Assembly: GCA_017654855.1 (NCBI GenBank)
Contig: CM030336.1
Coordinates: 744,001-808,000 of the forward strand
Direction of reading: 5' to 3'
DNA: 64,000 nt
Source: Podospora anserina
Lineage: Eukaryota
Under the pieces are notes generated by a model that saw only the letters and a list, made by a program, of their open reading frames with translations, did not search any database and was not told where the DNA came from. Numbering within the stretch: position 1 is the stretch's first letter; every line of letters begins with the position of its first letter. The position numbers were made by a program, and so were the translations under genes. Of the stretch, positions 1 through 25,662 are shown piece by piece.

Positions 1-1447
1 CTGACGCTGAAAAGCATTGTGCTAGTGTGGAATCTAATTTGGTGTTGGTGTTGGTTGGGTCTCGCCAGGAGCCTACAGTCCATGAGAAGAACCAACATGA
101 TGAACACCGGAAATATTCTTGTGATGAGGAGATTTAAGAACTTCTCCAAAAAAAACTGGTCCGTGCTGTGTGGTTGGAATATGTGGAGTAAGCCAATTCA
201 GGCTTGGTGGGGTTTGATCTTGCGTGCCGCAGAACCCCTCTGTTTTCCTCGATTCTTTGCTGCCTACACCATGTCACAAGAAATCCATTGCCAGCTTCCT
301 CTTTCAACCTGGTGCCGACATTTTGCCCACAAAGATACGAACGACAGAGAAACATCAACGAGAAATGCTATTTGTACCACCGTCAGCCTGCATCACGAGT
401 CGGTCCGCGTCCCTATGCTTCAGCCCTAAACGATGCTCTGGGTGGCCAGATGCCATCCGATAAAGAGCTGGTTCGATAAACCCTTCCCACCAAGGACAAC
501 TGGCTGGGCTCGTACACTGGCACGGGAAGCTTACCGCATACATAAAACCAAGATTTGATGGCAATGGGTGTTGGGATGGCACCACCACCATGGAAACACC
601 ATCTCGAGGCTCCGAACTGCCGCCAGCCGCGGGCGCTAAATGCACCCCTTCTTGGCAGGTCAGCGTGCGCTAATTGACTAACCTCTCTAGGGCGTTGGAT
701 TTTGCCGTTGCGCCAACACTCGAGACATGAAGACCACCACGATTGAGATGCGTCAATCTTCCCCGCGATGCAACTGATTGCCAAAATCGCTGAGGTCCTA
801 CACAAGCCAGATCGGCTTACACATAATGCACCCCTTCAGCACTCTCAGCAGGCGATTCCGGTGTTTTATTCGAACCGGCTTGCGAAGGTCCGTCGCAGGA
901 TGTTGCTGTTTGGGGGCGCTCCGGGGGCGGCCCAGCAAAATTGAGCACCAAGGCCGTCGTGATACCTATCTCTTGTGTGTCGGTCCTCTCCGGCCCCGGC
1001 CGCGAGACAGTGGTCCTATGATTCTCTTCAGACACCTTCAACATCACCGCCCCCCGTTATCTCAATGGCAATGCACCCATCTAGCTCCGTGCATGCACTC
1101 TCTTGGTGTGCCGGCTTCCAGCCCGGATCTGGCGATCGCCCAAAGGGGGTCATGTAGCCCAGAGGCTGAGCTCAGCATGCCCCCGTCGTGATTGGGCTGC
1201 TTGTCCTGATGACGGGGAAGGTCGCAAGGCTCCCTGGCACGCCCACCGTGGTGCTCAGTTTCGTCCCCTGCGGCATCCATCGTCGCTGTGCCAAGGTTGC
1301 AACAAGCGGCGCGGTTGTGTGGTGCTCTCCAGACCACAGCCCACACGTACGCAAGCTTTCAGCAGCAAAAATCATTTCACACATGCGACTCTGCGGCCAA
1401 CGTCGCCGATACATCTCGACCACACTCACGTCTCCCTCTCTCGCCTT

Positions 1448-1490
1448 GTGCTTGCCTGCCTGCTTGCTTGCTTGCTTGCTTGTTGCTTGC
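1448..1490. repeat. (GCTT)n-like tetranucleotide microsatellite upstream of the NRPS-like gene
   Basis: gtgcttgcctgcctgcttgcttgcttgcttgcttgttgcttgc. Confidence 0.8.
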
Positions 1491-1732
1491 TGGTCTTTTC
1501 GCTCCTCCCCCGCCTTCCCGCAGCTCTCTCCGACCCCAGGCTGCCATCCCGATACCCGAAAGAGGTGTTGCTGATGTGCAACCAAACCACTTCGAGAGCG
1601 TCAAGCCAACCTCCTGCTGTGCCCCATGCGGCCCAGCGCCTGACGACCCTCCAACTCTTCTCCTTTGTTTGAGATACCCATTTGCCGCTTTCTCTGTCCG
1701 TGTTTATACCGTCCCAGGCGCTGCTTGTCAGC

Positions 1733-4700
1733 ATGGCCTCCCCCCAGAGGTTTGCCCCTCCGCGCATCGATGCCTCGACTTCCTGGTTAATGCTCGAAGA
1801 CGAACCCCTCGAAGCGCGTTTGCTCAGCGTGGTTGCTCAGGTCTTGGGAATCGACACGGCAACACTGCGGATACAGGCCTCCTTCAGAGAGTTGGGAGGT
1901 GACGAACAGAGCGCCTCTGCGCTAAGACAGGCTTGCCTGGATGCTGGGATGGATATTGCTGTGGACGACATTCTTCGATGTTCGACCCTCGCCGAGTTAC
2001 AGACATGCATAACGCCATGCACCACGCCAGCGCGAAACATCGACAATGAACTCGACGATGCCCCATTTTTTGCCCTTCCTGACGTCGACAGCCACAACAA
2101 TATTATGGCGCAAGATGATGGCGGGGCTCATTCGCGCAAGCCAAGCCAGGCGAGCCAGGCCAGTTCGGTGACAGTGGGGAAGCAGAGAACGGAACTCGAA
2201 CAAGCGCTTGGGATACAACCAGAGATTGGGAGGATGGCCACGGTAAGGCCAAAAGCTGGGTTGTTGGAGGGCAAGCTGGTGGCTCTTCTCACCCTCGCTT
2301 CCATGCAGAAAGAGAAGACAGATTCCTCGCCGATCGACCTCATTCCACAGTCACACGCCCTCTTTGCCGGTACCCAGGTTGCCAACTTACGGCAAGCAGC
2401 CGAGTCGACTCTGGAGCCCGACGCCGTGCCAGACTTGTGGATTGTGTTGGACGGAATGCCCATGACAGACTCTGGCGACGTGGACGAGAGACGGTTGCGA
2501 ACATGGGCCCAGAACATCAATGAGGATGTCCACCACCAGGCTCTCAGCTTGGAGCTTCAAGAAACATTGCAAGCCCCAGAATCGGGCATGGAAAAGACAC
2601 TGCAGAGGCTGGTCAGCAAAATACTGGATGTCCCACAGAGTCAGATTGGCGTCAATTTCTCCTTCTCGCAATTGGGCGGGGATGAGATGACAGCTATGGA
2701 ACTCGCTGCTCGATGCAAACATGAGTCCATATATATCCACGCTTCCGAAGCCCTCGGATCAACAACACTGTCCGAGTTGGCAGCCATTGCAGCAACCCGG
2801 GGCGGGCTGGCTCACAAATGGGATGAGGAGACATCGGACGTTTTTGATCTATCACCAATGCAGCACTTGTACTTCCAGACCTCGATGGGCGGTGATCTCA
2901 AGCGGAGAGTTGGCATTGAAGGGAGCTACCGCTACAACCAGAGCTTCCTCTTGCGGTTCAAGAAACACTTCAACTTTGTCGATATCTCCGCCGCGGTCGA
3001 GGCAATCGTTGGGCACCACCCCATGCTCCGCGCGCGCTTCGGCCGGGGATTGCATGGGTGGGTGCAAAGGGCGCTGCCCGAGGTGCCGGGCTCATACACG
3101 ATATCTCAAAACACCATCCGATCCGAGAAGGAAGCCGAGGAAATTATCGCCAAGACGCAAATATCCATCAACGTCGAGACAGGACCGGTGTTTGCAGTTG
3201 ACTGCTTCACAACCCAGGATGAGCAGCAGTGGATTTACTTGGCCGCCCACCACCTTGCGGTCGATGTTCCATCCTGGCGCACCATTATCCATGATTTGGA
3301 CGAGCTCCTCGTGAACGGTAGTCTGCTGTCACAAAGGTCAATGCCATTCCACAAGTGGGTTGACATGCAGAAAGCTGACGCCAGTGGCCCGGACCCAAGG
3401 GAGCTGCTCCCCTTCCCAGTCCAACCCGGCGATTATGCCTATTGGGGCCTCCAAGATGCCGCCAACACATATGGCGATGCTGTCGAGGTCGGCTTCTCGC
3501 TTAGCCACGAACTTACCTCGATACTCCAAACGTCATGCAACCAAGTATTCCAGACAGATTCCGTTGACATTTACCTTGCCGCCCTCATGCTGTCTTTCGC
3601 CCAGACCTTCCACGACCGATCTGTGCCAGCCATTTGGAACCAAGAGCACGGGAGAGACCCCCTAAACCCTGATGTCGATATCTCCGAGACAGTGGGGTGG
3701 GTCAGTTCCCTTTGCCCCATTGGCCAAAAGGTCGAGAGCGGGGACGACTTCATCACGGTTCTTCGCCACCTGAAAGATACAAGAAGAAATATTCCAGGAC
3801 GAGGGGTACAGTACTTTGGGTCGCGCTTCTACCACTACAACAAGGCCGATATCGTCGCTAACGACTGGCCATTTGAGATCATATTTCGTTACGCCGGTTC
3901 TATGCAGCATCTGGAAAGGGATGATGGCGTCCTAGAGCAACTTCCGATTCCCGGCCGGTCACTGGGCTCAAGAACCTCCGATATTGGAGCCGACGTGGGC
4001 CGCATTGCAATTTTTGAGGTTGACGCTGTGGTCGATCAAGGGATGGCGAGGGTGAAATTTCTCTACAGCAAACATTCCACAGACCAGACTCGGATATCAC
4101 AGTGGATACACAACTACGAGCATCTGTTGCTGGAGGCTATTGGACGACTCAGGTACCACCCGCAGGAACTGACCTTGACCGACGTGCCGCATCTAGATGT
4201 TACATATGAGGGCTTGCAAACGTTTAACAAGGAACGGCTCTTGACACTCAACCTTCCCAGCGTCCGCGATGTCGAGACCATTTACCCAGTCACCGCTGTC
4301 CAGCAGAGCATCCTGATCAGCCAGGCCTTGAGACCCGATACGTGCTATGTTCATGCAATTTACGAGTTTGCGTCCCCTAATGGTGACCCCATCGATATTT
4401 CGAGGATATGCACAGCCTGGCAACAAGTCACCATGAGACATGCGGCACTGAGGACCGTGTTTACCGAGAGCGTCAGCGAAACAGGCCTCTGGGACAAGGT
4501 GATACTGCGCCGAGCGTCTCCTGAAATGTTATTCATCGACACAGCGCCCGCTGAAGATCCAGTGTACGAGCTCAGCAACCTCCCTAACCTCCGACCTTCA
4601 GATAGCAAACCTCTCCACAGGCTGACAGTCTGCAAGGCGCCCACAAGGACTTTGGTGAAGCTGGATATCAGCACTGCTCTTTGTGATGTGAGTTTGGGCA

Positions 4701-7700
4701 CCCATTCAAGTGCCGGCCATGGCCTGATACTGACCCGGTCAACAGTCCATCAGCATTCACCTTCTGCTTCATGACTTGCGACGAGTGTACGCCACCGAGA
4801 GGGCCATCATGGAACCAGAGCAGTTTCAATATCCCGATTACCTTTTTTTCCTCAAAAATGTCCGGCAAGAAAGCAGTCTCAAATACTGGCGTGAGAAACT
4901 GACTGGGGTCACCCCCTGCATGTTTCCGCGGCTCACTGTTCTTCCTGAAGAGCAGAAGTTTGTTAACGCTGGTCTGGAGCTTGACATCACTTCGTACGAG
5001 TTGGCCAACTTCACTCGGACTCACAAGATTTCTGCCGCTGCAGTACTTCGTCTCGCTTGGGGACTGCTCCTACGGTGCTTTACAGGCTCCAATCAAGTTT
5101 GCTTTGGCTTCCAAACAGCTGGGCGTGACGAGGCAAATGTTGGAATGAGACACGCAGTGGGGTCCTTCGCGAACACAGTTGCCTGCACCTTCGAACTTTT
5201 AACATATGGCCCGGTGATTCACGCCCTTCAAAAGGTTGAGGAGGAGCTCCAGGCGACCCTGCTTCATCAGAATTTCACCATGGCTGAGTTGCAACATGCC
5301 ATGGGCGCCAAGGGTGGTGAGCGTTTATATAACTCTTGTTTAACTTTCACAGAAGAACCGGCTGGGTTGAACAGCAAGTTTACGACAAGAACGAGCTTCG
5401 AGTTGAAACCGATAACACTGCAGCAGACATTCGACACAGATGTCGTCGTAAATACACGATTCACTGGCGGAAAGCTGTTTGTCGATATTGGTCAACGAAT
5501 CATGTCACCAGAGCAGTCGATCAACGTTGCCAGCACCTTTGGCAAGGCCATCCGGGCTATTTTGGCAACACCCAACAGCTCAATCGGCCTCGTTGACCTC
5601 TTCACCGACAGAGACCTCGCCCAAATCCTGGCTTGGGATGCCGAATCTCCCCAGTTAACCGAGACACTCACTGACACGGTTGTGCATGAGTTGATCTCGA
5701 GGCAGGCGGAGATGCAGCCCTCATCGCAGGCCATATGTTCCTGGGATGGCTCATACACATATCTGCAACTGGAGGAAGAGGCGACCAAGCTCGCTCATCA
5801 CTTGGTGGATGCAGGGGTTGGGCCTCATTCCGTGGTTCCTGTGGTGATGGACAAATGCAAGCTTGCTCCTGTCGCTATGCTGGCCGTCCTCAAGTGAGTT
5901 TCTTGCATCCTGATCCACTGACTTTCATCTTGCTAACGCTCTTAGGGCCGGTGCTGCATTCGTTCCCGTGGATTCGCTCGAGCTTGGTATCATCCAGCCG
6001 ATTTTTGAACGGCTCACCAACTCGAGGGTTGCTGTTTCGTCTGAACTTGCGGCCCCTGTTCTCAGCAACCTTTTTGATCAAGTAGTTGTCGTTACCTCTG
6101 AGCTCATGGGGGCAATTCCAGATAACCTAGGATCGCTGACCTCGATGGCCGCCCCGACAGACGCTGCCTGTGTCCTTTTCGTTCCTACATCAACCAGCGA
6201 GGCCCGGGGGGTCACCTTCAGCCACTCTGCCCTGGCTACCGCTTTGGTTGGCCAAGGCCCTGCTGCTCGAATCACACCTCTCAGTCGCGTCATGCAGCTA
6301 TCGTCCTTCAATGTCGACATTTGTATTACCGAGATTTTCACAACGCTGGTCTATGGCGCTTGTGTTTGCATACCATCGGCTGCTGAGAAGCTACAGGATT
6401 TTGGTGCGGCCGTCAACCGCATGCAGGTCAACTGGAGTTACATGACGCCTCTGCTGTCGAGGAAACTGGATCCGACCCTTCTGCCTTCTCTCAAAGTTGT
6501 TTGTTTCCGGACACGAAGCCTCGACGATGACACGTACAACATTTGGCATGGGAAGGTCAACGTCGTGCTGGCCTATGGGCCACAGGACTGTTGTCCTCTC
6601 GGGATTGCCTTCCTCGAAGCCATGGGAACACATCATCTACGCAGCATCGGGCGACCTTTCAGCGGAAACCTCCTCATTGTTAACCCAGAAGACCACAAGA
6701 AGCGTGTTCCGGTTGGTGCTGTTGGAGAGCTTGTTGTGGAGGGACCAACGCTGGGCTTCTCCTACCCAAACAGGGAATCCACTGTGAGCCCGATGTCGCC
6801 CCTCGGAACTACCGGAGGCAAGGCCCGCTACTTCAAGACTGGTCACCGCGCCAGATACACCGAGGGTGGTCTTATGGAGTTTATCTCTAGTCAGAGGGAG
6901 GATATTGACCTTGACGGCAAAACGATCAACGTTACAGAGATCGAGCAGTATCTTCGACGTTGCCTGGGTCGCGGCATGGACGTTATCGTGGATATTGTGG
7001 CATTCCGAGGACCGAAATCCGACACCATTTTAGCTGCATTTGTGGAGTTTGGTGATCGCATTGAGGTGGATGAAAGCCTTAGCTCGCTGAGCCCTGCCAC
7101 CCAGGAGCAGTTGACTACGGTGAAGCAGCTGGTTCAGGCTGGACTGGAGAACCGACCGCCCCCATGCATGCTGCCCTCGGTCTTCATACCCGTCAAGCAT
7201 CTCCCGGTCACGCCGTCTCTCAAGGTCAACCGACGACGTCTACAGAAAATGATCACTGGGATGACCAAAGAGGAACTGTTCAGCATTTGCGCCTTCTCTA
7301 CCGAAGCGAGACTGGCCATGCTGAAGCCACTGCCACCGACAGAAAGTGAGGAGAAAATGAGATTGTTGTGGGCAAGGGTTTTGGGCATGGAAGATTCCAA
7401 GATCACGGCTTTGGATACCTTCTTTGGACTTGGAGGCGATGTGATCATGGCTGGGCAACTAGTAGCCGCTTGCCGCCGCGAGGGCATTTCACTTTCGATC
7501 GCCAAAGTACTTCAAAATGCCACCTTGGCTGAACTCAGCAAGACCGTTGCGGAGACTGCAAGTCCTCAGAGCCTACCCGTTCCGCAAGCACCCACCTCTC
7601 CGCCACCACCGGTTCCCACAGCATCAAATTCGCCTGCGCCACCACCAACCCCCAGCCAAACCCCGGTTCCCAACCCTTCACCAACTGCCCAATCATCGAA

Positions 7701-10308
7701 CGCTATCAAGGAAGTCTTCATTGAGAAGGTTATTGCGCCCAAGATTGGAGTGGACCCAAGCTCGATTGCCGATGCAGCCGAAGCCTCGTCTGTTCAGATC
7801 AGGTACATTGAGACGGGTATGCTGCGTGGACGATCCAACATCAATTACTTGACGTTCAACTTCATCGGCGCGGTGGACTCCAAGAAGTTGGAAACAGCCT
7901 GCAAAACCTTGATCAGCATTCATCCAATTCTACGCACTGTATTTGTCCCATATAATCGTCGAGTGTACCAGGCTGTTCTCAAGAATCCCGACATCGAGTT
8001 CCGTCGTCATTACTGCCCGACCTGGAGGCTTGCCACCATGTTGGAGAAGATTGTCAAAAAGGACCAGTCCTCTGGCACCAAGTTTGAAACACCAATGACA
8101 AAATTCATGTTTTTGGACGGGAGCAAGCAGTCGGTTCTAATTCTGAGGCTCACCAAGGCTCAATATGATGACTTGTCCGTGGCCTTGTTGGTCAAGGACC
8201 TCAAGCGACTTTACGATGGATCTCAACCGGCACCCAAAAGGCCAAGTTATTGCGATTTCCTGCGGACTGCCCAGCTCTCCATGGCCCAAGGCCCGGGTGC
8301 GGAGGAGTACTGGCGAGCGTTACTAGAGGGCGCTGTGATGACACAGGTTGTTGCCCATTCTCAGCCCTACCAGATGTCTACCCACGTCAAGACAATTCGA
8401 AACCCCATGCTGTCTCTGGGACCCCTTTCAAGTCTCGGTATCTCATTCGAGACAGTCCTCAAGGCAGCTTGGGGTATGACGCTTGCCAAGCTCTCGGCAA
8501 CGTCCGATGTCGTTTTTGGAGAACTGATCGATGGGCGACATGTGCGGCTACCTGGGAATGTATCTGTTGCTGGTGTGATGGGCCCCACCGTCAATACGAT
8601 CCCCATTCGTATTCAGTTTCCCGACGCCTCATTGACGCCCATGAGTTTGCTTCAATACGTCCAAGCCCAGCACGGTGCCGGCGTGCCATTTGAGAACCTC
8701 GGGACTCTTTTTCTGATCGAAAAGTGCACACCATGGCCATACTGGACACGTTTCAGCACGGTTGTTCGACATCAGTATGAGGATACCGCCATCCTGCCCA
8801 ATGAGCCCAAGTCATTTCATCTTGGTGCAGCGTCATGCAAATTCACCATCAACGAGTCCAGAGCCCAGGACATTCCAGATCTCTTTGTGAGATCCGTGGT
8901 TCGACCCCCTGGCCGAGTTGAAATATCCATTTCGTACTGCTCTGAGCGGATCCCGGAAGCGTTTGCCGACCACGCTCTCCGCATGCTGGCAACCAACATC
9001 ACCATGCTCACCAATGCCAACCTCACGCAAGAGCTGATACCACAGGGGTATCAGTACCGCAATATGATGAGGCGAATTCCCCTGACACCGAGCGAGTCAG
9101 CTTCTAGCCAGAGCTCGGAAGCCGACAGCTTGAATCTGATCAACTCCCTCAGCCAAGAACAGATCACGCTCATTAGGACGGCGGTTTCCAATACATGGTC
9201 GACGATTTTGAATCCTCTTGCGCTCGGAGTGCCGGAGGATCAGGTACACAATGCCTCATTTTACGATCTCTGGGGCAGTCTGATCCCGGCGTCGCAAATG
9301 ATGCAGCAGTTGAACCGGGAGCTTCCCAAAGCCAACATCCCAGGCGCCGATGCCAATCTCAAGGTCACGATGGAAGAGATTATTGAGAACGCCACCATGC
9401 TCAAGCAGTTTGAAGTCATCGCGTCCAAGGTGAAGCCGCTAGGAAATAAAGATGCAGCAAGGAAGGAGAAGTCAAGGGAGACCACCCGGGTGGGCACCGA
9501 TACCCCCAAACTCTCGGGTTTGCAACAGAAGCGAAAGCCAAGCATGAACAACTTGGCCGCCCCAGCGAGCTCGAGCTCCCTTGGATCACGCATCCGCCGT
9601 CTGGCGAGCACCGTGGGCCGTACTAACTCGCCGCCCATTGCCAGACCACAGACGGCAACCTCTCCCCCACCGGTTACGCCAACAACCCCAGTTGCCATCG
9701 GATTGGCATCTGCCATGGTGGCGGACATGTCACCGCTTGCGCCCAAGCTCGTCGGGAGTCTGTCTCCAAGCATGGCAAGCACACCTACCATGCGCAATGG
9801 CGCCAGCAGCGCGGCTGGTGTACCAAATTCTGCGCCCCAGCTGCCAAGCCTGCCGCTATTTGAATCCATCGCCGAAGAATCAGAAGCTGCCAGCGACAAC
9901 ACGCTCAAGCCAGCCGCATGGAGGAAAGCGAGTCCACTGCTCCCAGGCAGTTCAGCCGACAGCATGACGACGGGGAGTTCAGCCAGCAGCCACCACAGCG
10001 GTGAAGGGCTGGGGCTGATGGCTAGGATTGACGAGCACGACACGGAGGAGGACACCATTGTTGCCACAAATAACCAAATCCGCACTGGAGCCAATACACC
10101 TATGATCACAGAGGAGATTATTGCTGGTGAAGCCGAGGATGTGGCCAGCCCGCTTGCAGCGCCGCCTACTACGACGCCCAAGACGGGGAGCACCAGGTAT
10201 TTTTCTACGACATCAAGTGGGCAGGCTGAATCAACAGCGGGCGTGAGGGAAGCAAAAGAAAGGAGTAAATTGTGGGGGAAGACGGGGATGTCACCTGTTG
10301 TTGGGTAG
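1733..10308 (+). CDS. NRPS-like multidomain protein (~2,820 aa; T*-Asub*-T*-E-C*-A*-T*-C*-T?-S/T/P-rich tail, * = degenerate active-site motif)
   Basis: ORFs 1682..4774, 4776..5897 and 5968..10308 join in frame through GT-AG introns 4688..4745 (LCD|SISIHLLLHDLRRVY) and 5894..5945 (VLK|AGAAFVPVD). ATG at 1733. NRPS hallmarks present: HHPMLRARF, epimerization-type HHLAVD/EHGRD/ETVGW, RHAALRTVF, GELVVEGP, carrier-like F..LGGD motifs. Confidence 0.9.
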
Positions 10309-11917
10309 AGAAAAGTCATGCCGTGTTTCTTTTGTTGGTGCGGGTGAAAGGGATTTGGGATGGCCGGTGCATTGGATGGAATTGGGATACCCTGGGTGCC
10401 TTGATCATGGACTGTTCTTCTATGTGTTGTTGTTGTTGTTTGAGTCACTGCCTCTATTGTCAATGTTTGTGTTGGTTTATACATTGCATATCTTACACCG
10501 ATTTTGTCTGTTTAATATTTTTATTATCATAGTCCTAGTCCTCAGCGAACTGGACAATGTTTTGATATTTCGAGCATTTGGACAAAGCCGCCGTGTATGG
10601 AACCCCGGTTACGACCGAGGGACACATCATGGCAATGTTTTCCAGGCCGGTGATGTGATATTTGTTGCTCTCGGTGTTTTCTGGGGGGCTCTAGCAAGGT
10701 CTTATGTAGCACTGCATGACCTTCCGCAATAGGGTTCAAAGAGGAAGGCAGACGGGGGGGATGGACGGAGCGATTCGGTGCGGTCTGTCGGTGTGGGGGT
10801 GATGCAGCCAACTGTCCGGATTCTTGCTCTCTCCTTGGTGTTGGTGTGTTCTTTTAGGAGAGAAGAGGGGGTGGCGCTTTCTGCTTTGGGGGCTGGTCGG
10901 AGTCAGCTAATTAGTATCGGATATGCACTTCAATTATGAAAGACAGGTTTTCCTGGAGGAGGAACTCGAGTTCGGGTTCGGGAGAATGTGTGGGTAAAAC
11001 TTTTCTCTTTTACATGAAGGATTTCGGTTCGAAGTGGAAATCGGTGGATGAACGCAACGTGGTGGTTTACCTTACCTTACCTTGCTGTCGCTGCATAGTG
11101 GCGCCATTCCTACTGCAGATAGTTCTCCGGGGGCCACCAATCGGGTTCGGAGCCCTGGGGGATGCTGCAGAGGGATGCGACTGTGACTTCTTCAGCGGTT
11201 TGTCAGTGCACCACCAGAGAAAGAAATCCGCAGCTCGCCGGGTGTAAAGGATTTCGGGGTTTGGCGGGGACTGGGCTAGCTGAGCTGCGTGGATAGAAGA
11301 CGAGTAACGATTGTCAAGCCATTGATGTTTTCCTCTCTCGTTTTTCTCATTGAAGATTCGCGATTCATAAGCATTCCCAATTGAATGGATCGTCAGCCGG
11401 GAACGAACAAAGAAGATCATGGGGTAGCACGGCACGACACAACACCCTTTCCATTCCCAGCAGCTTGGGCCGCGCTAACCCCCTTCCAGAACCTGCCCTC
11501 GCCCATGCGTCTTTTTCCTCTCTCTCTCTGCAGGACAGCAATGAAATAGTTTGCTGTCAAACCCTGGACACCGGGTGGGCGGTGTGGTGCTGTTGGTTCA
11601 ACCGTCCAAGAAAACCCACGACGGACGGAACCCTCCCGGGCCAATTTTCCCCAGCTGTGGTACTTCTTGTTCCCCGTCCCCCCCGCGTTCTTGACTTTTG
11701 TCCCAATTCCTTTTCGCCCCAACTTCTCCCACGAACAGCACACTTGTTGGGTGCTCCACATTGCGCGCCCGCGTGTTCTTTGTGTCTCAACGTCTAGACC
11801 ACAGGGCCAAGACAAACGGCTTCACTTGTCACGGACTTTTTGCTTTTGAGCTGAGTGAAAGTGGGGGATTGATTGATCGACAGAAACCATTTTGGCTCCC
11901 GCGACCGATTTTCCACG

Positions 11918-13318
11918 ATGGCCTCCACCGACGACGCTCCACCTGTCACCACCACCGCAAAATCGGCGCCATCACCACCAGCTGCTTCCCCATCCCCGGC
12001 GCCGGAGGGGAAATTGTCGGGGAAGAGCTCACCCAAATCTGGGGCGGGTTCGCCGAGGAATTTGGATGATGCGCTTGATCCGCTGAATGGGGAGCACTGG
12101 ACTCAGCACGTATCTTTCCCCCTTATAAACACCCTACTTGTTTCAAAGCGCGCGGGACTAATGAGGTTTTTGGGGGGGGGAGGAATAGCCCGTTGAAGAC
12201 GACAGCGACTCGGTCCTTGACAGCATTCTGAGTTCCACCGCGAGCCTGTCCTCGAGTATATTTGAATACCGCAACATCAACGGCCGGACGTTCCACAGCG
12301 ACAAGACCAACGCCGAGTACTGGGGCCCGAACGATGACAAGCAGCTGCAGAGCCAGGATATCATTCACCACTGCCTGACGCTTGTGCTGGAGGGGAGGTT
12401 GTATCTGGCGCCGATTGACGCGGGGAAGATTAGCAAGGTTTTGGACGTGGGCACTGGAGGGGGCTTGTGGGCCATGTTTGTTTTTCTCTTCCCCCTTTTT
12501 CTTTCTCCGGTGCTGATGATGGCAGTGACTTTGCGGACCTGCACCCCAACCTGGAGGTGACGGGGACGGACATCTCCCCTGTGCAACCCTCGTGGGTGCC
12601 CCCCAATGTGAGATTCGAGATCGAGGACGCGACGCTGCCGTGGACGTTCAGGGAAAATTCCTTTGACTTTGTGCACATGAGGTATTTGTTCGGCTCGATT
12701 CCGGACTGGGATGCGATTTTTGAGCAGGCTTATGCGGCGACGAAGCCGGGGGGGTGGATTGAGAGTTTTGAGGCGGATGCAAATCTGTACTCGGAAGATG
12801 GGACGGTGACGGAGGACTCGCCGATGGGGACGTGGACCAAAGTTTTCAAGGAGGCCAAGAAGAAGTTTGGGAGGACGTTTTTCCCTATTGAGGAGGACGT
12901 GCAGAGGAGAGGCATTGAGAAGGCTGGGTTTGTTAACATAACTGTGAAGGATATCAAGGTGAGTTCTGTTTAGGAGGTGTACGGCGGATGTAGGCTGACC
13001 TTGATGGCAACAGGTGCCGATGACGGGATTCCCGAAGGACCCGAAGCTGAAGGAGATTGGGCAGTATAGTCATTTGGCTATTGAGCAGGACTTGGAAGGT
13101 TCGTTTGCTACCCACCATGCCTGATGAAACGAAAACCAGAAACTAACAAGATAACAGGCATGGTGCTCTACATTTTTGGAGAAGTCATGGGCTGGTCCGT
13201 GGTGGAGATCCACGCTTTCCTGGCTCACTTCCGTAAGCAGATGAGAAACAAGAACTGCCATCCCTTGTTTCCGATCAGGATTGTGTACGCCCAGAAGCCA
13301 GAGAAGAAGAAGGACTGA
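11918..13318 (+). CDS. SAM-dependent methyltransferase (LaeA-like/TAM family), 5 exons
   Basis: Spliced reading gives SSIFEYRNINGRTFHS..YWGPNDDKQ..LYLAPI..KVLDVGTGGGLWA|IDFAD..GTDISPVQPSWVPPNVRFEIEDA..FDFVHMRYL..KPGGWIE..IVYAQKPE. Introns ~12110..12188, 12476..12525, ~12959..13013, ~13099..13157. Confidence 0.9.
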
Positions 13319-13848
13319 GCAGAGATCAAGAGTTTGCGATGGATGATGGATAAGTGAGAAAAAGTGGTGGTGGTGGTGGATACGATGACATATATCTTAC
13401 TTTCATTTCTTGTTCATAGCGTAAATTGGAAATAAGTCTGACATGTAAAACCTCTTTGATACTTCAGGAACTATCTTGTCACCTAAAGGGCTGTGGAACT
13501 TTGGTGCAATGCAATGTGTCTCCATGGCAACACAGGTGTGGGATCCACAAAAGGGGCTATTGCTTTCTCCACACTTTGGCAACATCCAACCCAGCCTTGA
13601 TGAATGAGCAACCCAATCTTGAAACACACGTCTCCAATATGACGATGATAAGCGCGAGGGGTATGACAGTGGTAGCTGCAGAAATTGAGGGTTGGGTGGA
13701 TGGCAGCCGAGAAGAACCATTTTAAGTTACCTAATGTGATGTGTTCGGAGGACAGGGGGATTGTTTTGCTGGACTTCTGTAAACTCCGGTAGAAAGGAGA
13801 TTTGTGGATTCCAAATTTGTCGCAAGGGGGAAGGTGCTAAAAAATATT

Positions 13849-13933
13849 CGACCAGCATGGGACTCGAACCCACAACCTCGGCTTTGCAATCCCTTAGTAG
13901 GAGAGCCACACGCTACCATTGCGCCAACTGGCC
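13849..13933 (-). tRNA. tRNA-Arg(CCT) with 13-nt intron
   Basis: Minus strand reads GGCCAGT TG GCGCAATGGTAGCGT G TGGCT CT CCT A [CTAAGGGATTGCA] A AGCCG AGGTT GTGGG TTCGAGT CCCAT GCTGGTC G. All stems pair, and a T-run terminator follows. Confidence 0.9.
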
Positions 13934-14430
13934 GCTTATCAGTGGGAATCCAACAAGGGCGAGTGTCTATAAAACTGCTTCTCAGTCAGTCGTGTAATCG
14001 CATCTCCATAGATCTCACCGGCCCATGGCCTCGATTTATCTTAAGATCATCACAATATAGCTCACCGCTCATCTTATAAAATACACCAGAACCGCCACAT
14101 CGTATCAGCCGCCTTTCACCCAATAGGGCCCCGAGAAGATAGGTTTTGTTTGACAGATGAAACTATCGAGAACTCACAGTCCCATGTTAGAAGAAATGCT
14201 CGGACAATAGACAGCAAAAGCTAAGACTCTAGATACCAAAAGCTCAGCAGTCCACCACATTGTCACCCACCCCGACATCACTGAAAGGCAAACATAATGT
14301 GCCAGTCGATCTTCAAGTCCAAGTTGTCCAGGCACGCCGCCGGCAGCACAGGCAAGCAGCGGCGTCATCTTCCAATGTGGAGCGATTGGCCCGCGGACCG
14401 GGTCAAACAGTATTCCGAGTTTCCGGCAAC

Positions 14431-17258: not shown

Positions 17259-18687
17259 TTAATTCTCCTCATCAACCGGCAAATGTGTCCTCTCATCCTC
17301 CACCACCTCATACTCATCCCTCCCAAAAGTCTCATTCAACCTCACTCTCCCCACCACCTTCCCACTCTCCAGCCTAACCCACGTATCCATCTCCCGCAAT
17401 CTCAACCCCTCAATCGAAACCCACACCTGCCTCGATCCCCTAATCCAACTCCCATACCCCCCATAACCCGTATGCTGCCCAAAACACAAATAAACCCTCC
17501 TGCCCCCCTTTTCATAATCCGAACACCATGTATCCCCATGATCGTGCCCCACAAACAACCCCAACAACCCCTCCTCCATCACCGCCTCCATAAACCCCCC
17601 ATCCTGCCCCCCATACTCGCAACCCTCCATCCCATCTTCACACCACCCCTCCCCTTGTCGGTTAACCGGCTGATCCCCATTAATTCCAGGCTGCTTCTTC
17701 CCGTTTATCCCCCTTTTCTGAGCCTCCCAAAAAGCCCCAGTAGGGATATGCACAAACCCCAACCCCGGCAAACTCCTCCCCCCATTCTCTCTCTTCAGCC
17801 TCCCGCTCATCTCCCTAAACCACCTCACCACCTCCTTGCTAACCCAATTTTCCCTCCCCTTACTCCTATTCCCACCTCCCTCCTCCTGGGAAACAAAACC
17901 ACCTCTGCTATCAAAAAACCACAACACCATCTCCACCCTCGCATCCAGCCCTTGCACCTCCAAATAATAATTCGTCACCCCCACCCCCTCCTCTCTGCCC
18001 CTTACCATCCTCGCCGTTCTACTACCTTTGTACCTCTTCTCCCGCTCAAACAACGCCGTGGGCGACAGCCTGCAGTCCGAGTCGTGATTCCCGTACGTAC
18101 TCCCCCACGTAATATCTCTACTTGCCAAAGTCTCGGCGATTTTGTCGATATACTGGGTGCCGTTGTCGAGATAAACATTCTCCCCCGTGATGATATCACC
18201 ATTCAGCACCACAAAATCCGTCTCTGGTTCTCTGTCCAAAACAGAGTTTATCACGCCGAGGGAGGCGAGGTCTTGTTTGGGACCCCAGGGTTCCCAGGCG
18301 TCTTTTCAGCGATTTACATTGTTAGATTGGTACAAGGTAACCTCACAGAGCGGGTGATTCTAGTGTTGATGCAGCTGAGCTAAGTTGAGGGGGTGACTTA
18401 CTCTCGCCAAAATGCAAATCTGAAAAGATGCTCAGTTGGAAGCTGCCGTCTTTTTTGAACTGAAGCGGCGGCAGGAGGGGACTGAGTTGCGGTCGATGGC
18501 GATGATTGATGAAGCCGCCAAGCTGTTCGCAAAATGGGATCGTTACACGAAGGAGCTGTGAATAAGGACCGAGTAGACATAACGTCGACACGACCAACAA
18601 AACTCGGCAATACGATGCCCGTCTGACCCTCGTAAACCTCGTGTAACCACCACCAGCAGCTTCCGTCCTTTCAGCGTCTCGCGGCAT
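17259..18687 (-). CDS. Calcineurin-like metallophosphoesterase (DCR2-like), 2 exons
   Basis: Motifs FSDLHFGE|NAW (intron 18302..18401), VVLNGDIITGE, YGNHD, GFVHIP, VGHDHG, HTGYGGYG. N-terminal hydrophobic anchor. Confidence 0.9.
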
Positions 18688-19586: not shown

Positions 19587-22532
19587 CTACTGAGGTCTGC
19601 TCGCTGCCTTTGCCTATTGCTCTCTGTTAGTGCCTGCCCTGCACACTTCTCGTCGAGGCCTCCGCAGCTGCACATACCTTCATAAGTTCAATCCTGGCCT
19701 TCAGCTGACTCGTCACCTCGGCAGCTCTTCTCCAGCTCTCCATGCCAGACGTCGCGGGAGCACCAGAAGCATTGATTGGTGGATCGCCCAACCTGCTTCC
19801 TGCACGGCTCCCAGCCCTGCTCCCCGCCCGGTCACCATATCCGCCATAGGCACCGCTGCCACTAGCACTATCGTTATTGCGAATGTCTCTGTCGTCACCG
19901 CCGGAAATGTCTCGCCTAAACCCTCTAGCTGGGCTGGCGCGGCCGCTGCTAGCGGTGCTGCCCGCGTACCGGGACTCTGGGGGAGCCATCTTTCGGGGGT
20001 GCGGCACACCGTCGCCGTTCTCCTTCTCCTCGCTAAGGGTGCTGGCGAAGCTTTGACGGGCTCTACCCGCACTAGCAGGAAGAGCGTTGTCACGGTAGAT
20101 CCCGCCATCATCGTGCGTTGGGCTCAGAGCCCGGAATCCAAGACTGGGGGATACAGGGCTGTCTGCGCCCCCACCGTTGTTGAGGGCGGCTTCGGCCTTA
20201 CTGAGCGCCCTCTTCAAACGGTCCAGCTCGCGTCGTAGCCGCTCATTTGTCTGTTCGGCAGCCTCGGCATCACTGCGAGCTCTCACCAGCTGTGTCTCCT
20301 TGGCCTTGATGGAAAGTACATCTCTCGTGTGATCCTCGATCAACTGAGCATTTTGGTTCTTGAGCTCCTGAATTTCTGATGTCAGCTTGGACCGGTCGTG
20401 ACGAGCGTCATCTAGCTGTTTGAGCAAGCGTTCATTGGCCATGCGCAATTCCTCCAGCTCGGCACGTTCCATGTGTGAGAAGGTAGAGGTCGGAGATGGG
20501 GATGCAGCGGGCGCGGGGGCTGATGGCGCAGCTGGTTTGGCGAGTGAGCGGCCAGCGAGACCACCGCGTCCCAAACCAATGCGCGGCTTTGGTGGGGGAG
20601 AAGCGGGAATGGGCTCCTCCTCTTCGTATTCCGGCTCAAATGCAGGTGATGGCACGCGAGGGGCTGCCGGTCTACGCGGTGAAGCAGCGCCGGCGGCAGG
20701 ACCACCGAGAGTGCGCTTCTGTGGTGCCTTGAGACCCCCGAGCCCTGGCTTCCCGAGCTTGCTCCCCGCGGGACCGGGACGCGCAGCAGCTGGCGGCGCA
20801 GGTGGAGGTGAAGGCTCTGGCGGCGGTGCGGCGGCTGCCGGGGGTGCCTTTTTGAGACCAGGAGGGGCCTTCTTTGCGCCCAACGTCTTCTTGGGTGGTG
20901 GCCCCCGCGCAGCGGGAGCTGGCGGCGGCGGCTTCGGCTTATCCTTGGCCTTGACTTCGGCCGTCTCAAAGAACTCCTTGATCTTGGTCTTTCGGATATC
21001 ATCAAGACCTTCGAGATGGGGATTCATGGCTCTTTCGCCAATGATCTTCATGATGGTTCCCAGAATCTCGGCACCGCCAGACCGAAGAACCTCGCTACCC
21101 TCGGAAAGCAGCTTCTTGGCGCATTCAACGATGCTGGCAATTTCCTGCTTGCTCGGCACCTCCCTGGTTGTTCGAAGACACCTGACAAGAAACTTCATGG
21201 TTCCCTCCTTGACCTGGGGGTTCTTGTGAACGAGGAATGTGGTGATATCTTCCAAGCACTCGGTCAAGTTGGTAGAAAGAAACACAGCGTCCAGCGCAGC
21301 ACCAAGCGCATCAGCAACCGTAACCTTCTTTTCCTTCAATCTCTCCATGATAGGCTGCATGACGTTGGAACGATACTTGGCGAAGCCCTTGCGCAGACCC
21401 TTGGCGAGCATTTCGATACATTGCGCTGCCTGAGTGACGACCGCAATGTTGGCGTCCTTCATGCATTTGGCCAAGCAGCGGGTGATCTCACCAAAATCAC
21501 CATCCTTGATCCTTGGCACATTGACAATAGCATACAAGGCCTCGCAAGCTTCCTTTCTCTCCTTCCACTTGGACGAGGCCAGGTTGTCGTAGAAATCCTT
21601 GGGCACTTTGCTGATGACGTCTTGTGGCTCGGCCAGGTCAAAAGCGTCAACCTCACCAGCCTCTTCCTCCTCTTCTCCCTCCTCTCCATACTCGTCACCA
21701 CCTCCTGCCGCAGGTGCCCGTTCCTTGGCCGCTTGCTGTGATCGCAACAATCGCTCCTGCTTCGCTGGACCTTCGGCCTTGATCTTCTCAAACTGCGCTT
21801 CGAGATCTGTCTGCTGTGTTGGTTTGAGGTCGCCCCAGAACATTGGCTTCATAGCCTCGCGCAGCCACCGGTAGAACTCGACCGCCAACCCCGTCGCCTC
21901 TGCTCTCACATTCTTGTCGGCGTGGCCAAACACCTTGGGTAGAATCTTGAGAACGGGTTTGGGATCCGCTGTTTTGCAGCCATAGTTGTGAAAGATCTGG
22001 GTCAAAGCATGAAGCGCCGCAGCAACAACCTTGGGTTGCTTGTTGGAAAGCACCGGCAGAATCTCTTCGATCACCGGGCCGGGAACATCAATCTCGATGA
22101 AGAGGAGCAACGCTTCGACTGCTGACGCCTTCGTCGCCGCTCTCGTGGAGGACAGGCCCTTCTCGCAAATTGGTGTGACAGCATGTTGTCTGGCTCGTAT
22201 ACCGCCTTCGCGGCCGCCAAATTTCAGAAATGCGCAGAGGGCAGCCAAGCCATCTTGTTGAGCAGCAACGTTGGAGTCTGCGACTGCTGTCTTCCACAAG
22301 CTCGGATCTTGGATGAATGGTCGGAATGCTGGGTCGTACTCGTCGGGGGTCTTTTCGAATGCCTGGGCAGCCTCCTCGTATGCCTGTTTTCGTACTTTCC
22401 AGACCTATTCGCCAACTGATGTTTTAGTTTGCCTGTCTAGTAGGTAGTCAGCGAATAAGGAGACGCGCGCACCTTGTGGACCCAGCGATCTGTAAGGGGC
22501 AAAGAGCTAAAGTCTTCTTCTCCGTCAGCCAT
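19587..22532 (-). CDS. STU2: XMAP215/Dis1-family microtubule polymerase (Stu2/Alp14/AlpA): two TOG domains, Pro/Lys-rich linker, coiled coil
   Basis: MADGEEDFSSLPLTDRWVHK|VWKVRK (intron 22405..22472), GHADKNVRAEA, LASSKWKERKEA, KDANIAVV, C-terminal coiled coil and WRRAAEVTSQLKARIELMK. A final intron gives AKAASRPQ* ending at 19587. Confidence 0.93.
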
Positions 22533-24120: not shown

Positions 24121-25662
24121 ATGAATACAAACATCCTGACCACCCGTCAGGCTGAGGAGCTGTAGGTTTCCTGTCGTGTGATCACGTCCACAGCGGGCGG
24201 GGTTGGGTCTTGACGAAGCCGAGGCAGGCAGGGACTGACAGCGATGCAGACACAAAGCCATCATCGCCTACCTTACTGCCAACAACCTTTCGAATACCGC
24301 GTCGGCTCTGCGAACAGAGCTCAACCTTGGAGAGGATGTGTTTGATCCAGCAACCGCAAAGAAGTATGAGGGGCTGCTAGAAAAGAAATGGACGAGTGTT
24401 GTGCGGTTACAAAAGAAGGTCAGTCGCGTGGTCGGTTTCTGTGTTTGTCGGCCTGTCCATCTGACATTCTTTCCCAGATCATGGATCTCGAGTCCCGGAA
24501 TAGCACTTTGCAATCAGAGCTCGCAAACAGCACCCCCACGTCCCGACAAAATAAAGATCCAGTAGCCTGGTTGCCCAAATCTCCAGCCCGCCACACGCTG
24601 CAATCCCACCGAAATCCAATCACATGCGTCGCCTTCCACCCAGTATTCTCATCACTGGCTTCCGGCTCGGAGGACCAAACCATCAAGATTTGGGACTGGG
24701 AGCTGGGCGAGCTCGAAAGGACGATCAAAGGCCATACCAAAGCTGTGCTCGATGTCGATTTCGGCGGACCTAGGGGAAACACCTTGCTTGCCTCGTGCAG
24801 CTCAGACTTGACCATCAAGCTCTGGGACCCATCAGACGACTACAAGAATATCCGAACGCTCCCTGGTCACGACCACAGCGTCAGCGCAGTTCGATTCATC
24901 CCGTCAGGGGTAGCAGGTGGTACCGGCAACCTCCTTGTCAGCGCGAGTCGAGACAAGACGTTGAGGATATGGGATGTGAGCACAGGCTATTGCGTAAAGA
25001 CTCTTCGAGGACACGCCGAATGGGTCCGTGATGTCTGCCCATCCATTGACGGGAGGTTCATCTTGTCGACAAGTGACGATTATACCGGCCGGTTGTGGGA
25101 CGTCTCGATACCGAACCCGGAGCCGAAGACCACACTGATCGGACACGAGCACGTTGTGTTATGTTGCGCCATTGCTCCTGCGGCTGCTTATCCACATCTT
25201 GCCGCCATGGCAGGGATCAAGAAGCCACCAGCAACGAGTGCCGTAGAGTTCATGGCGACCGGCTCAAGAGACAAAACGATTCGGCTGTGGGATGCGAGAG
25301 GGACGTGTATCAAGATATTGGTGGGCCACGACAACTGGGTGCGGGGCCTTGTCTTCCACCCTGGTGGACAGTACTTGTTGTCGGTGGCTGATGATTATAC
25401 GTTGCGGTGCTGGGATCTGACCCAGGAGGGTAGATGTGTCAAGACGATAGGGGACGCACACGGGCATTTCGTGCAGTGTATCCGGTGGGCGCCTTCGATC
25501 GTCAAGGATGTCCCGGCAGTCAATGGTGAGGGCGCCAATGGTGAATCGAACGGGACACCAAGGAAAGCAGCGGGGGCTGCCGGTGCGGGTGGTGAGGCGC
25601 AGATTCGGTGTGTCATTGCGACAGGGAGTGTTGATTTGAACGTGAGGATTTTTGCCAACTGA
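24121..25662 (+). CDS. nudF: LIS1/NudF/Pac1 dynein regulator (LisH, coiled coil, WD40 repeats)
   Basis: [22 protein letters not shown]...[27 protein letters not shown] (introns 24162..24249 and 24419..24477), followed by WD repeats ([48 protein letters not shown]). Confidence 0.95.

Follow-up and report, generated by a model that had tools for sequence, protein, structure and literature searches.

Why would a fungus keep an intact gene for a peptide synthetase whose product seems unable to hold an amino acid? The question is raised by PODANS_5_1070 of Podospora anserina, which occupies 1733..10308 on the plus strand of the 64,000-nt stretch analysed here (contig CM030336.1, positions 744,001 to 808,000; called the window, with its first letter as position 1). 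An initial annotation, made from the letters alone, had described the product as a seemingly catalytically dead relative of the nonribosomal peptide synthetases (NRPSs) and had proposed that it is maintained for a role other than synthesis. The roles of NRPS motifs in adenylation (A domains), pantetheinylation (carrier, or T, domains) and condensation (C domains) are used here as they are generally described for these enzymes. Comparison with about 110 orthologues, a selection test and public transcript data together make it very probable that PODANS_5_1070 is an ancient and conserved derivative of an NRPS that works outside thiotemplate chemistry.

Architecture and family of PODANS_5_1070

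The predicted protein is arranged as T1, a remnant of an A subdomain, T2, an epimerization-type (E) domain, a C domain (C2), an A-domain derivative, T3, a terminal condensation-like domain (C3, of the CT type), T4 and a disordered tail. Pfam recognised three PP-binding, three Condensation and one AMP-binding domain in total. Exon 1 accounted for two PP-binding and two Condensation stretches, exon 2 for Condensation and the start of AMP-binding, and exon 3 for AMP-binding, PP-binding and Condensation.

With exon 3 as query, 785 proteins matched at E <= 1e-10, and the best 120 of them were compared. One hundred of the 120 aligned with nearly the whole window protein at 38-99% identity, and the remaining 20 showed 23-30%. 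The 100 span the Sordariales, Coniochaetales, Magnaporthales, Glomerellales, Diaporthales, Xylariales and Microascales; a HMMER search with exon 1 added members from the Hypocreales (Stachybotrys, Thelonectria and Metarhizium rileyi), Zalerion and Cryphonectria. Neurospora crassa NCU04531 and Verticillium dahliae VDAG_10211 belong to the family and carry the same signature motifs; full-length alignment to proteins P0148 and P0117 gave 42-61% identity.

Motifs were tallied over 110 members, the query included and the control P0298 removed. As a paralogue control, residues 840-2540 of 101 family sequences were aligned with 14 multimodular paralogues of 4,100-4,800 aa. At every site scored, in the same columns, all 14 paralogues were canonical. 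The family signatures SxA[LI]CD, CFRTR, KTGH, SLKVNR, S[KR]AQYD[DE] and F[YF]DLWGS were all found in the window protein, in full-length collinear order. The lost residues were thus exchanged for new and fixed ones, and the pattern is therefore that of a family trait, unlike erosion. The initial annotation had proposed to ask whether the substitutions are conserved in orthologues, and they are: the changes at the carrier Ser sites, in A3 and in A7 are conserved in about 110 orthologues. Their distribution indicates that the thiotemplate residues were lost before the Sordariomycetes radiated.

The multimodular paralogues align to the window protein from residue ~145-155 on, across the A-T-E-C junctions. 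Residues ~161-282 (2213..2578) therefore appear to be the C-terminal subdomain of an upstream A domain that has lost its core, with an additional carrier-like domain, T1, in front of it; the A10-like Lys of this remnant is mostly lost. The alignments point to a multimodular NRPS as the ancestor, of which the family retains remnants of the final two modules (...A-T-E-C-A-T-CT-T).

Loss of carrier, condensation and adenylation residues

No pantetheine-attachment Ser was found at any of the four carriers of the window protein. The former site reads GGDE in T1 (1820..2032, aa ~30-100; motif at aa 55-58, nt 1895-1906), GGDE in T2 (2579..2797, aa ~283-355; motif at aa 315-318, nt 2675-2686) and GGDV in T3 (7348..7557, aa ~1836-1905; motif at aa 1864-1867, nt 7432-7443), exactly where the initial annotation had placed these three Ser-less carriers. 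Among the 110 members Ser stands at the site once in T1, four times in T2 and three times in T3. At T2 the residue is Glu in 78 members and Asp in 17, so that 95/110 are acidic. GGDS was present at T3 in 14/14 paralogues, and at T1, T2 and T3 alike in the control P0298.

T4 (9124..9447, aa 2428-2535) had been called a barely recognisable fourth carrier on the strength of FYDLWGSL. The motif is present (aa 2473, nt 9259), and when it is aligned without gaps Leu2480 takes the place of the Ser. Sequence profiles gave weak matches, all of which kept to the register of a carrier (hhalign probability 10.9% with the profile of T3; matches to the EntF carrier at E ~1). The structural models did not bear out the doubt about the domain itself. 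AlphaFold2, run on an 11-sequence alignment, predicted a fold with a pLDDT of 89.6 and a pTM of 0.82, and the PDB matches listed by Foldseek were acyl or peptidyl carrier protein (ACP/PCP) chains, or assemblies containing one, except at rank 12 (a chain of the Orf2971-FtsHi complex). Foldseek probabilities were 0.77-1.00, with weak E-values of 0.09-0.65 and TM-scores of 0.40-0.72. Giving the predicted fold more weight than the profiles, we assign T4 as a predicted four-helix ACP/PCP fold and hence a fourth carrier. A Ser-less T4-like element also follows the CT domain in some paralogues, so the loss of the T4 Ser may predate the family.

Both C-type domains lack the catalytic second His. In C2 (4268..5660, aa ~846-1290, with intron 1 inside) HHxxxD is replaced by STALCD, and over the family the position of the second His is Ala in 104/110; the Asp is kept in 109/110, and the Cys is found in 101/101 of the smaller alignment. 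C3 (7768..9102, aa ~1976-2420) has TKAQYDD for the SHAQ[YF]DG of the paralogues, and its His position is Lys in 51, Arg in 37 and Gly in 13 of the 110. HHxxxDG at C2 and SHAQ[YF]DG at CT were found in 14/14 paralogues. The initial annotation had counted two C domains without HHxxxD, and both strings that it quoted are there. For C3, however, HHxxxD was the wrong yardstick: it is a CT-type domain whose canonical motif is SHxxxDG, hence only its second His is informative.

The E domain (2888..4222, aa ~386-830) appears to be the sole domain with intact catalytic residues, and by its motifs and its nearest solved structures it belongs with the NRPS E domains. It contains HHLAVDVPSW and EHGRD and can be aligned with solved E domains over HHxxxDxxSW and GHGRE; the best PDB matches were the epimerization domains of GrsA, TycB and TycA (E 7e-26 to 7e-20). 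H506 and D511 are kept in all 110 members, H507 in 105 and the Glu of EHGR, E638, in 107. That HHLAVD is the only motif of its kind left intact had been noticed at the outset, and it is.

The A-domain derivative (5748..7272, aa ~1320-1810, with intron 2 inside) keeps A2, the A4 Asp, A6 and the A10 Lys, whereas its nucleotide-binding cores have been replaced throughout the family. The A3 P-loop, FTSGSTGxPKG in the paralogues, is FVPTSTSEARG in the window; the GGE strand has become CFRTR (Arg in 109, Thr in 105 and Arg in 103 of 110); A7 is KTGH against TGD, with His in 103/110; and A8 is SSQREDIDLDGKTINVTEIE against GRxDxQVKIRGxRIELGEIE, with SSQR at GRxD. A10 reads SLKVNR against GKxDR and A4 NVDI against FDxS, the Asp being kept. 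An alignment made independently with linear gramicidin synthetase A (LgrA) gave the same placement of A3, A4, A5, A7, A8 and A10. Of the losses first listed for this domain, A3, the A7 Asp and A8 were borne out. A5 was not, as YGPQD for the YGPxE of the paralogues is merely a conservative Glu>Asp change (Asp in 77, Glu in 23 and Gly in 1 of 101 family sequences).

The two substrate anchors of the A domain are kept. The A4 Asp (D1492) is found in 110/110 and the A10 Lys (K1794) in 97/110 members; we take these to be the equivalents of D235 and K517 of PheA. Motif-anchored mapping of the specificity pocket gave Tyr in 109, Cys in 110, Pro in 110 and Leu in 109 of the 110. Taken together, the missing pantetheinylation sites and the missing His of two C-type domains indicate that the thiotemplate route is closed to this protein. 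'Catalytically dead' nevertheless goes too far: the motif losses in the carrier, C and A domains are as described, and the E-domain residues and the D235/K517 equivalents are kept.

Two segments are more variable. A Pro-rich linker (7558..7767, aa ~1906-1975) separates T3 from C3, with a mean top-residue frequency of 0.30 and a gap fraction of 0.34. The tail (9448..10305), described at first as about 280 S/T/P-rich residues, comprises 286 residues, is S/A/T/P-rich (S+T+P = 100), variable and rich in gaps, and holds three conserved short islands, [ILV]R[RK]xAxTV, [ED]SMTxGS[ST] and [ED]DxVSPL, with a basic R-[RK]-x-A-x-T among them. Diaporthales orthologues (e.g. P0084, P0090 and P0121; 3,450-3,580 aa) have a C-terminal tail ~600 aa longer than that of the other orders. 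The tail-coding region of the window also contains an antisense open frame of 416 aa (9261-10511, minus strand), which most likely results from the skewed composition of this region.

Purifying selection

A scan of metagenome contigs yielded 21 orthologous loci with DNA sequence and the same motif states. Nei-Gojobori estimates of nonsynonymous (dN) and synonymous (dS) divergence and of their ratio (dN/dS, omega) were made on codons from tblastn alignments to the window protein, with pairs that had no stops in the aligned columns. Four pairs were informative, more distant ones being saturated: L003-L006 (dN 0.019, dS 0.269, omega 0.072, 2,490 codons), L005-L007 (0.042, 0.485, 0.086, 1,726 codons), L001-L006 (0.061, 0.820, 0.075, 2,483 codons) and L001-L003 (0.071, 0.883, 0.080, 2,590 codons).

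The constraint extends to the domains that have lost their catalytic residues. In the pairs L003-L006, L001-L006 and L001-L003, omega was 0.02 for T2, 0.05-0.06 for E, 0.03-0.05 for C2, 0.04 for the A core, 0.06-0.08 for T3 and 0.03-0.05 for CT (C3). It was higher in the T4 region (0.12-0.17), the A-subdomain remnant (0.11-0.14) and T1 (0.20-0.25), and was 0.39-0.69 in linker 1, 0.11-0.31 in the Pro-rich linker and 0.53 in the tail (one pair only). L005-L007, the coverage of which stops within the A C-terminal subdomain, gave 0.41 for T1, 0.20 for the A-subdomain remnant, 0.12 for T2, 0.09 for E, 0.07 for C2 and 0.05 for the A core. T2 was thus the domain with the lowest omega in every pair except L005-L007, and T1 was the least constrained folded domain (0.20-0.41 over the four). 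At the protein level the folded domains are alike in conservation, and those without catalytic residues are as constrained as E. The expectation of a dN/dS well below 1 was therefore realised, at 0.07-0.09 overall and 0.02-0.08 in the domains that lost catalytic residues, and the data point to a gene under strong purifying selection rather than in decay.

Three apparent in-frame stops in L008, L009 and L011 (query aa 986-1087) at first suggested a pseudogene lineage. This was rejected: the high-scoring segment pair (HSP) had overrun intron 1 in the wrong frame, and the correctly framed exon-2 HSP is open in these loci. The same run-on may slightly alter the C2 codon counts in other loci.

Gene model and transcription

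The coding sequence (CDS) of PODANS_5_1070 consists of exons 1733-4687, 4746-5893 and 5946-10308, stop included. It joins three long plus-strand frames in three different phases (1673-4774, 4734-5897 and 5914-10308), and the first ATG of frame one, at 1733, was taken as the start. Intron 1 (4688-4745, 58 nt, GTGAGT...CTGAC...CAG) interrupts the degenerate C2 motif, STALCD|S, at a position also kept in the metagenome orthologue L011, and intron 2 (5894-5945, 52 nt, GTGAGT...GCTAAC...TAG) lies within the A2 motif, LK|AGAAFVPVD. The spliced CDS of 8,466 nt encodes 2,821 aa, in agreement with the intact frame of ~2,820 aa and two canonical introns proposed initially. The protein shows 0 differences from the deposited PODANS_5_1070 of P. 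anserina S mat+ (P0130). Seven proteins of the Podospora complex, from six species, are equal in length with 0-33 differences, and the five species other than P. anserina differ from the window protein at 15-33 positions.

Six public runs contained 0.97 of the sampled gene words, compared with 1.00 in DNA runs. Four of the six, one from each of 4 studies, were compared over 1-14000 of the window. Both joints (4687>4746 and 5893>5946) were spliced in 4/4 of these RNA-derived runs, each of which gave a single contig of 7.4-10.1 kb covering the whole CDS. As the contigs skip exactly the two GT..AG introns, they derive from mature mRNA of the plus strand. PODANS_5_1070 is transcribed and spliced as modelled. 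The largest spliced contig extends over 1094..11318 (+); contig ends are not transcript ends, and the contigs inform on neither these nor the level of expression. The initial annotation had also named expression as a test, and full-length spliced mRNA contigs provide it. Its proposal of maintenance in a non-synthetase role is thus supported by every computational test that it named: conserved substitutions, low dN/dS and spliced mRNA speak against recent decay and against the role of a canonical synthetase.

The sole difference between contigs and window in the CDS was 6279 T>A, seen in 4/4 runs; it is synonymous (CCT>CCA, Pro1479) and probably a strain difference. Runs X15, X16 and X18, three of the four, also gave low-depth RNA-derived contigs upstream of the gene, at 316-1087, over open reading frames (ORFs) without a Pfam match.

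Proposed mechanism and alternative explanations

A family repurposed from an NRPS, having suffered these losses, held by purifying selection and acting by the mechanism below, is the explanation that we favour, and as a whole we consider it reasonably probable. The A derivative would have given up adenylation and would bind a small ligand, probably one bearing amino and acid groups, in a conserved pocket made up of the D235/K517 equivalents, the invariant Tyr, Cys, Pro and Leu, and two invariant Arg (Arg1556 and Arg1558) in place of Gly and Glu. The E-type domain would provide the remaining chemistry, on a substrate that is either free or supplied in trans. The carrier folds, devoid of Ser, would serve as fixed docking or structural modules, among which the Glu or Asp at the former Ser site of T2 may mimic the phosphate of a holo-carrier. 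The disordered tail, with its three short conserved motifs, would act in regulation or partner binding. The conjunction of ligand pocket, E-type activity, docking carriers and regulatory tail is put forward tentatively and is somewhat less likely than not. A bolder proposal, which we regard as rather doubtful, is that the A pocket has been rebuilt into a sensor of a small metabolite with amino or acid groups (Gly-Gly-Glu to Arg-Thr-Arg, Asp to His, the anchoring Asp and Lys being retained) and coupled to an E-type domain that catalyses or switches independently of phosphopantetheine, with phosphate-mimicking carriers locked on their former partners; the protein would then be a signalling or regulatory machine and not a biosynthetic enzyme.

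Several points weigh against a repurposed protein of this kind. The losses of adenylation, pantetheinylation and condensation are read from motifs, not from assays. A divergent yet active adenylating site may exist, as the A10 Lys, the A4 Asp, A2 and A6 are kept, and the E-domain residues could be retained for structure, not catalysis. The pocket was mapped from motif anchors in PheA numbering, and the two Arg are predicted, not seen in coordinates, to point into it. Ser does occur at one or more carrier sites in 7/110 members (P0054, P0062, P0078, P0087, P0092, P0094 and P0211); P0087 alone has it at two sites (T2 and T3), and all seven keep the other family signatures. In T4 the residue immediately preceding the canonical position is S2479 (Ser in 89 and Ala in 12 of 101). 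T2 is absent or unrecognisable in the Hypocreales members and is therefore not essential to a family-wide mechanism. The loci compared for dN/dS come from metagenomes, and some pairs have a dS near 0.8-1.0. Wild-type phenotypes are reported for most of 126 knockouts of N. crassa cluster genes (PMC9239088), a set that may include NCU04531.

Of the competing explanations, the one that survives best is that every domain, E included, is a structural or interaction module of a non-catalytic scaffold that organises or regulates other proteins. It would use the carrier-like folds, the degenerate tunnels of its C domains and the motifs of its tail to do so, and the target could be another synthetase, for instance, or a developmental pathway. 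An omega equally low in domains clearly without catalytic residues fits this well, as do the conserved motifs in a disordered tail and the lack of a conserved biosynthetic neighbourhood (see below), and the X domains of glycopeptide synthetases offer a precedent as recruitment platforms. It does not account for the selective retention of His-His-Asp and Glu in the E domain alone while both C-type domains lost theirs, the near-invariance of the remodelled A pocket exceeds what a scaffold would seem to need, and no partner is known. We consider a pure scaffold unlikely, though a serious contender.

A trans-acting tailoring enzyme is a less probable option, and one to which we give little weight. 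Its E domain, intact and of the E type, would epimerise or otherwise process groups on the holo carriers of another NRPS or of a polyketide synthase, and carrier-bound substrates are indeed what E and C domains normally accept. N. crassa, however, keeps an orthologue despite having few NRPS genes. Although P. anserina has other NRPS genes (PMC3495915), none that could be a partner lies close to PODANS_5_1070 in the window, and no such synthetase came to light in the 21 orthologous loci, which were searched with the flanking ORFs. This explanation also leaves the conserved A-derived pocket without a purpose.

That PODANS_5_1070 is an ordinary peptide-making NRPS, as public annotations imply, is very improbable. 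Pfam recognises all the domain types, papers based on antiSMASH or SMURF list orthologues as NRPS or NRPS-like backbone genes, and the A10 Lys and A4 Asp are kept; but there is no Ser at four carrier sites (at most 4/110 per site in the family), neither C-type domain has its catalytic His, the A domain has other residues in place of the P-loop, the A7 Asp and A8, and no conserved cluster accompanies the gene. A recently decaying pseudogene or an annotation artefact, in favour of which one can cite only that the draft genome of Scedosporium labels a probable orthologue a pseudogene (PMC6737921), is scarcely credible against a 2,821-codon open frame, Podospora-complex proteins of equal length, an omega of 0.07-0.09, full-length spliced transcripts and the same substitutions in 110 orthologues.

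Relation to known synthetases and to earlier reports

The nearest relatives outside the family are the CT-ending multimodular synthetases of 4,100-4,800 aa (P0045-P0051 and others), one of which, among those sampled, is named 'HC-toxin synthetase-like' by a source. They share C-A-T-CT homology at 23-30% identity, the domain order, the CT SHAQ[YF]DG region and, in some, the Ser-less carrier-like element after CT. They differ in having every catalytic motif (14/14) and more modules, whereas the PODANS_5_1070 family comprises the remnants of two modules.

Degeneration of single domains is familiar. Fungal siderophore synthetases (SidD/NPS6 and SidC/NPS2) retain a degenerate A domain (dA) with eroded core motifs; a product is nevertheless made there, by a further A domain together with holo T and active C domains, unlike in PODANS_5_1070, which has neither a carrier Ser nor a C-type His. 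In glycopeptide antibiotic NRPSs, P450 enzymes are recruited by the X domain, a degenerate domain of the C type. This domain resembles the present case as a C fold kept for recruitment without HHxxxD chemistry, and it differs as a bacterial domain, one in an active assembly line, with a known partner; no homology is evident beyond the shared C fold. In both of these systems one degenerate domain sits in a working line, whereas in PODANS_5_1070 the entire protein would stand outside thiotemplate chemistry. 'Degenerate' modules are also mentioned in PMC2823734.

The initial annotation had suspected that such genes might already be catalogued, and orthologues are indeed listed as NRPS backbone genes, the carrier problem being remarked once, in a probable Scedosporium orthologue. 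NCU04531 is given as the NRPS of N. crassa cluster SMC no. 18, which shows coordinate regulation during sexual development and on certain media (PMC9239088). VDAG_10211 is listed as an 'NRPS-like' backbone gene (PMC4971026), and Pa_5_1070 is once listed as a BLAST relative of AfSidD in a paper that describes further NRPS genes of P. anserina (PMC3495915). MGG_14967 was reported to have an A domain fitting no subfamily (Bushley and Turgeon 2010), and a link to the PODANS_5_1070 family could not be made. SAPIO_CDS8684 of Scedosporium apiospermum, a 2,708-aa E-C-A-C protein with 'surprisingly no peptidyl carrier domain', is 45-49% identical to Colletotrichum and Verticillium NRPSs and is annotated as a pseudogene in the draft genome; the authors speculate that no amino acid could be tethered (PMC6737921). 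Judged from this published description, not from its sequence, it is probably an orthologue. The Hypocreales members of the family, in which Pfam barely detects the carrier domains, agree with the Scedosporium remark.

Our literature searches, outside which most subscription journals lay, returned no study of motifs across the family, of selection on it or of its function, and searches of the same literature with pseudoenzyme or inactive-NRPS wording and with accessions found only the Scedosporium paper. A term search of a paper on Ceratocystidaceae NRPSs gave no match. The earlier reports confine themselves to listing the gene or to a remark on one species.

The distinction matters in practice, as genome-mining pipelines count the gene as an NRPS backbone in every Sordariomycete, from Neurospora and Podospora to pathogens of the genera Magnaporthe, Colletotrichum, Verticillium and Cryphonectria. 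If no peptide is made, one 'orphan cluster' per genome is mis-assigned and hunts for its product are bound to fail. If the proposed reading is true, a whole megasynthetase, not a single domain, has stayed under strong selection after losing thiotemplate chemistry and offers a natural system in which to study what NRPS domain folds can do without phosphopantetheine. The question is open to direct testing in two genetic model fungi.

Genomic neighbourhood

The initial annotation had pointed to one downstream methyltransferase as the only sign of a tailoring cluster. The gene exists, at 11489-13443 (+), and encodes a LaeA-like Methyltransf_23 protein of 385 aa; the RNA-derived contigs show four GT..AG introns in it, at 12110-12188, 12476-12525, about 12957-13011 and about 13097-13155. 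As a conserved partner it was rejected: it is not syntenic, with no tblastn match at E <= 1e-5 in the 21 orthologous loci, the flanks of which reached up to 10 kb. Just upstream of its exons, two of the four runs contained a joint that leaves out 58 nt with non-canonical GG..CA ends (11430-11489), which may be a contig artefact or a feature of the 5' untranslated region.

No conserved biosynthetic cluster was found among the neighbours in the window or in the 21 orthologous loci searched with the flanking ORFs of the window. The surroundings look like housekeeping territory. A Stu2/XMAP215/CLASP TOG-domain microtubule protein is encoded at 19627-22404 (-) and a WD40-repeat protein at 24370-25662 (+), and only housekeeping neighbours appear to recur, with the orientation of the NRPS-like gene varying between loci. 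In L002 and L003 the TOG gene and the ORF at 17262-18305 (-) adjoin the orthologue on its other side, upstream, which implies that the NRPS-like gene has been inverted with respect to them.

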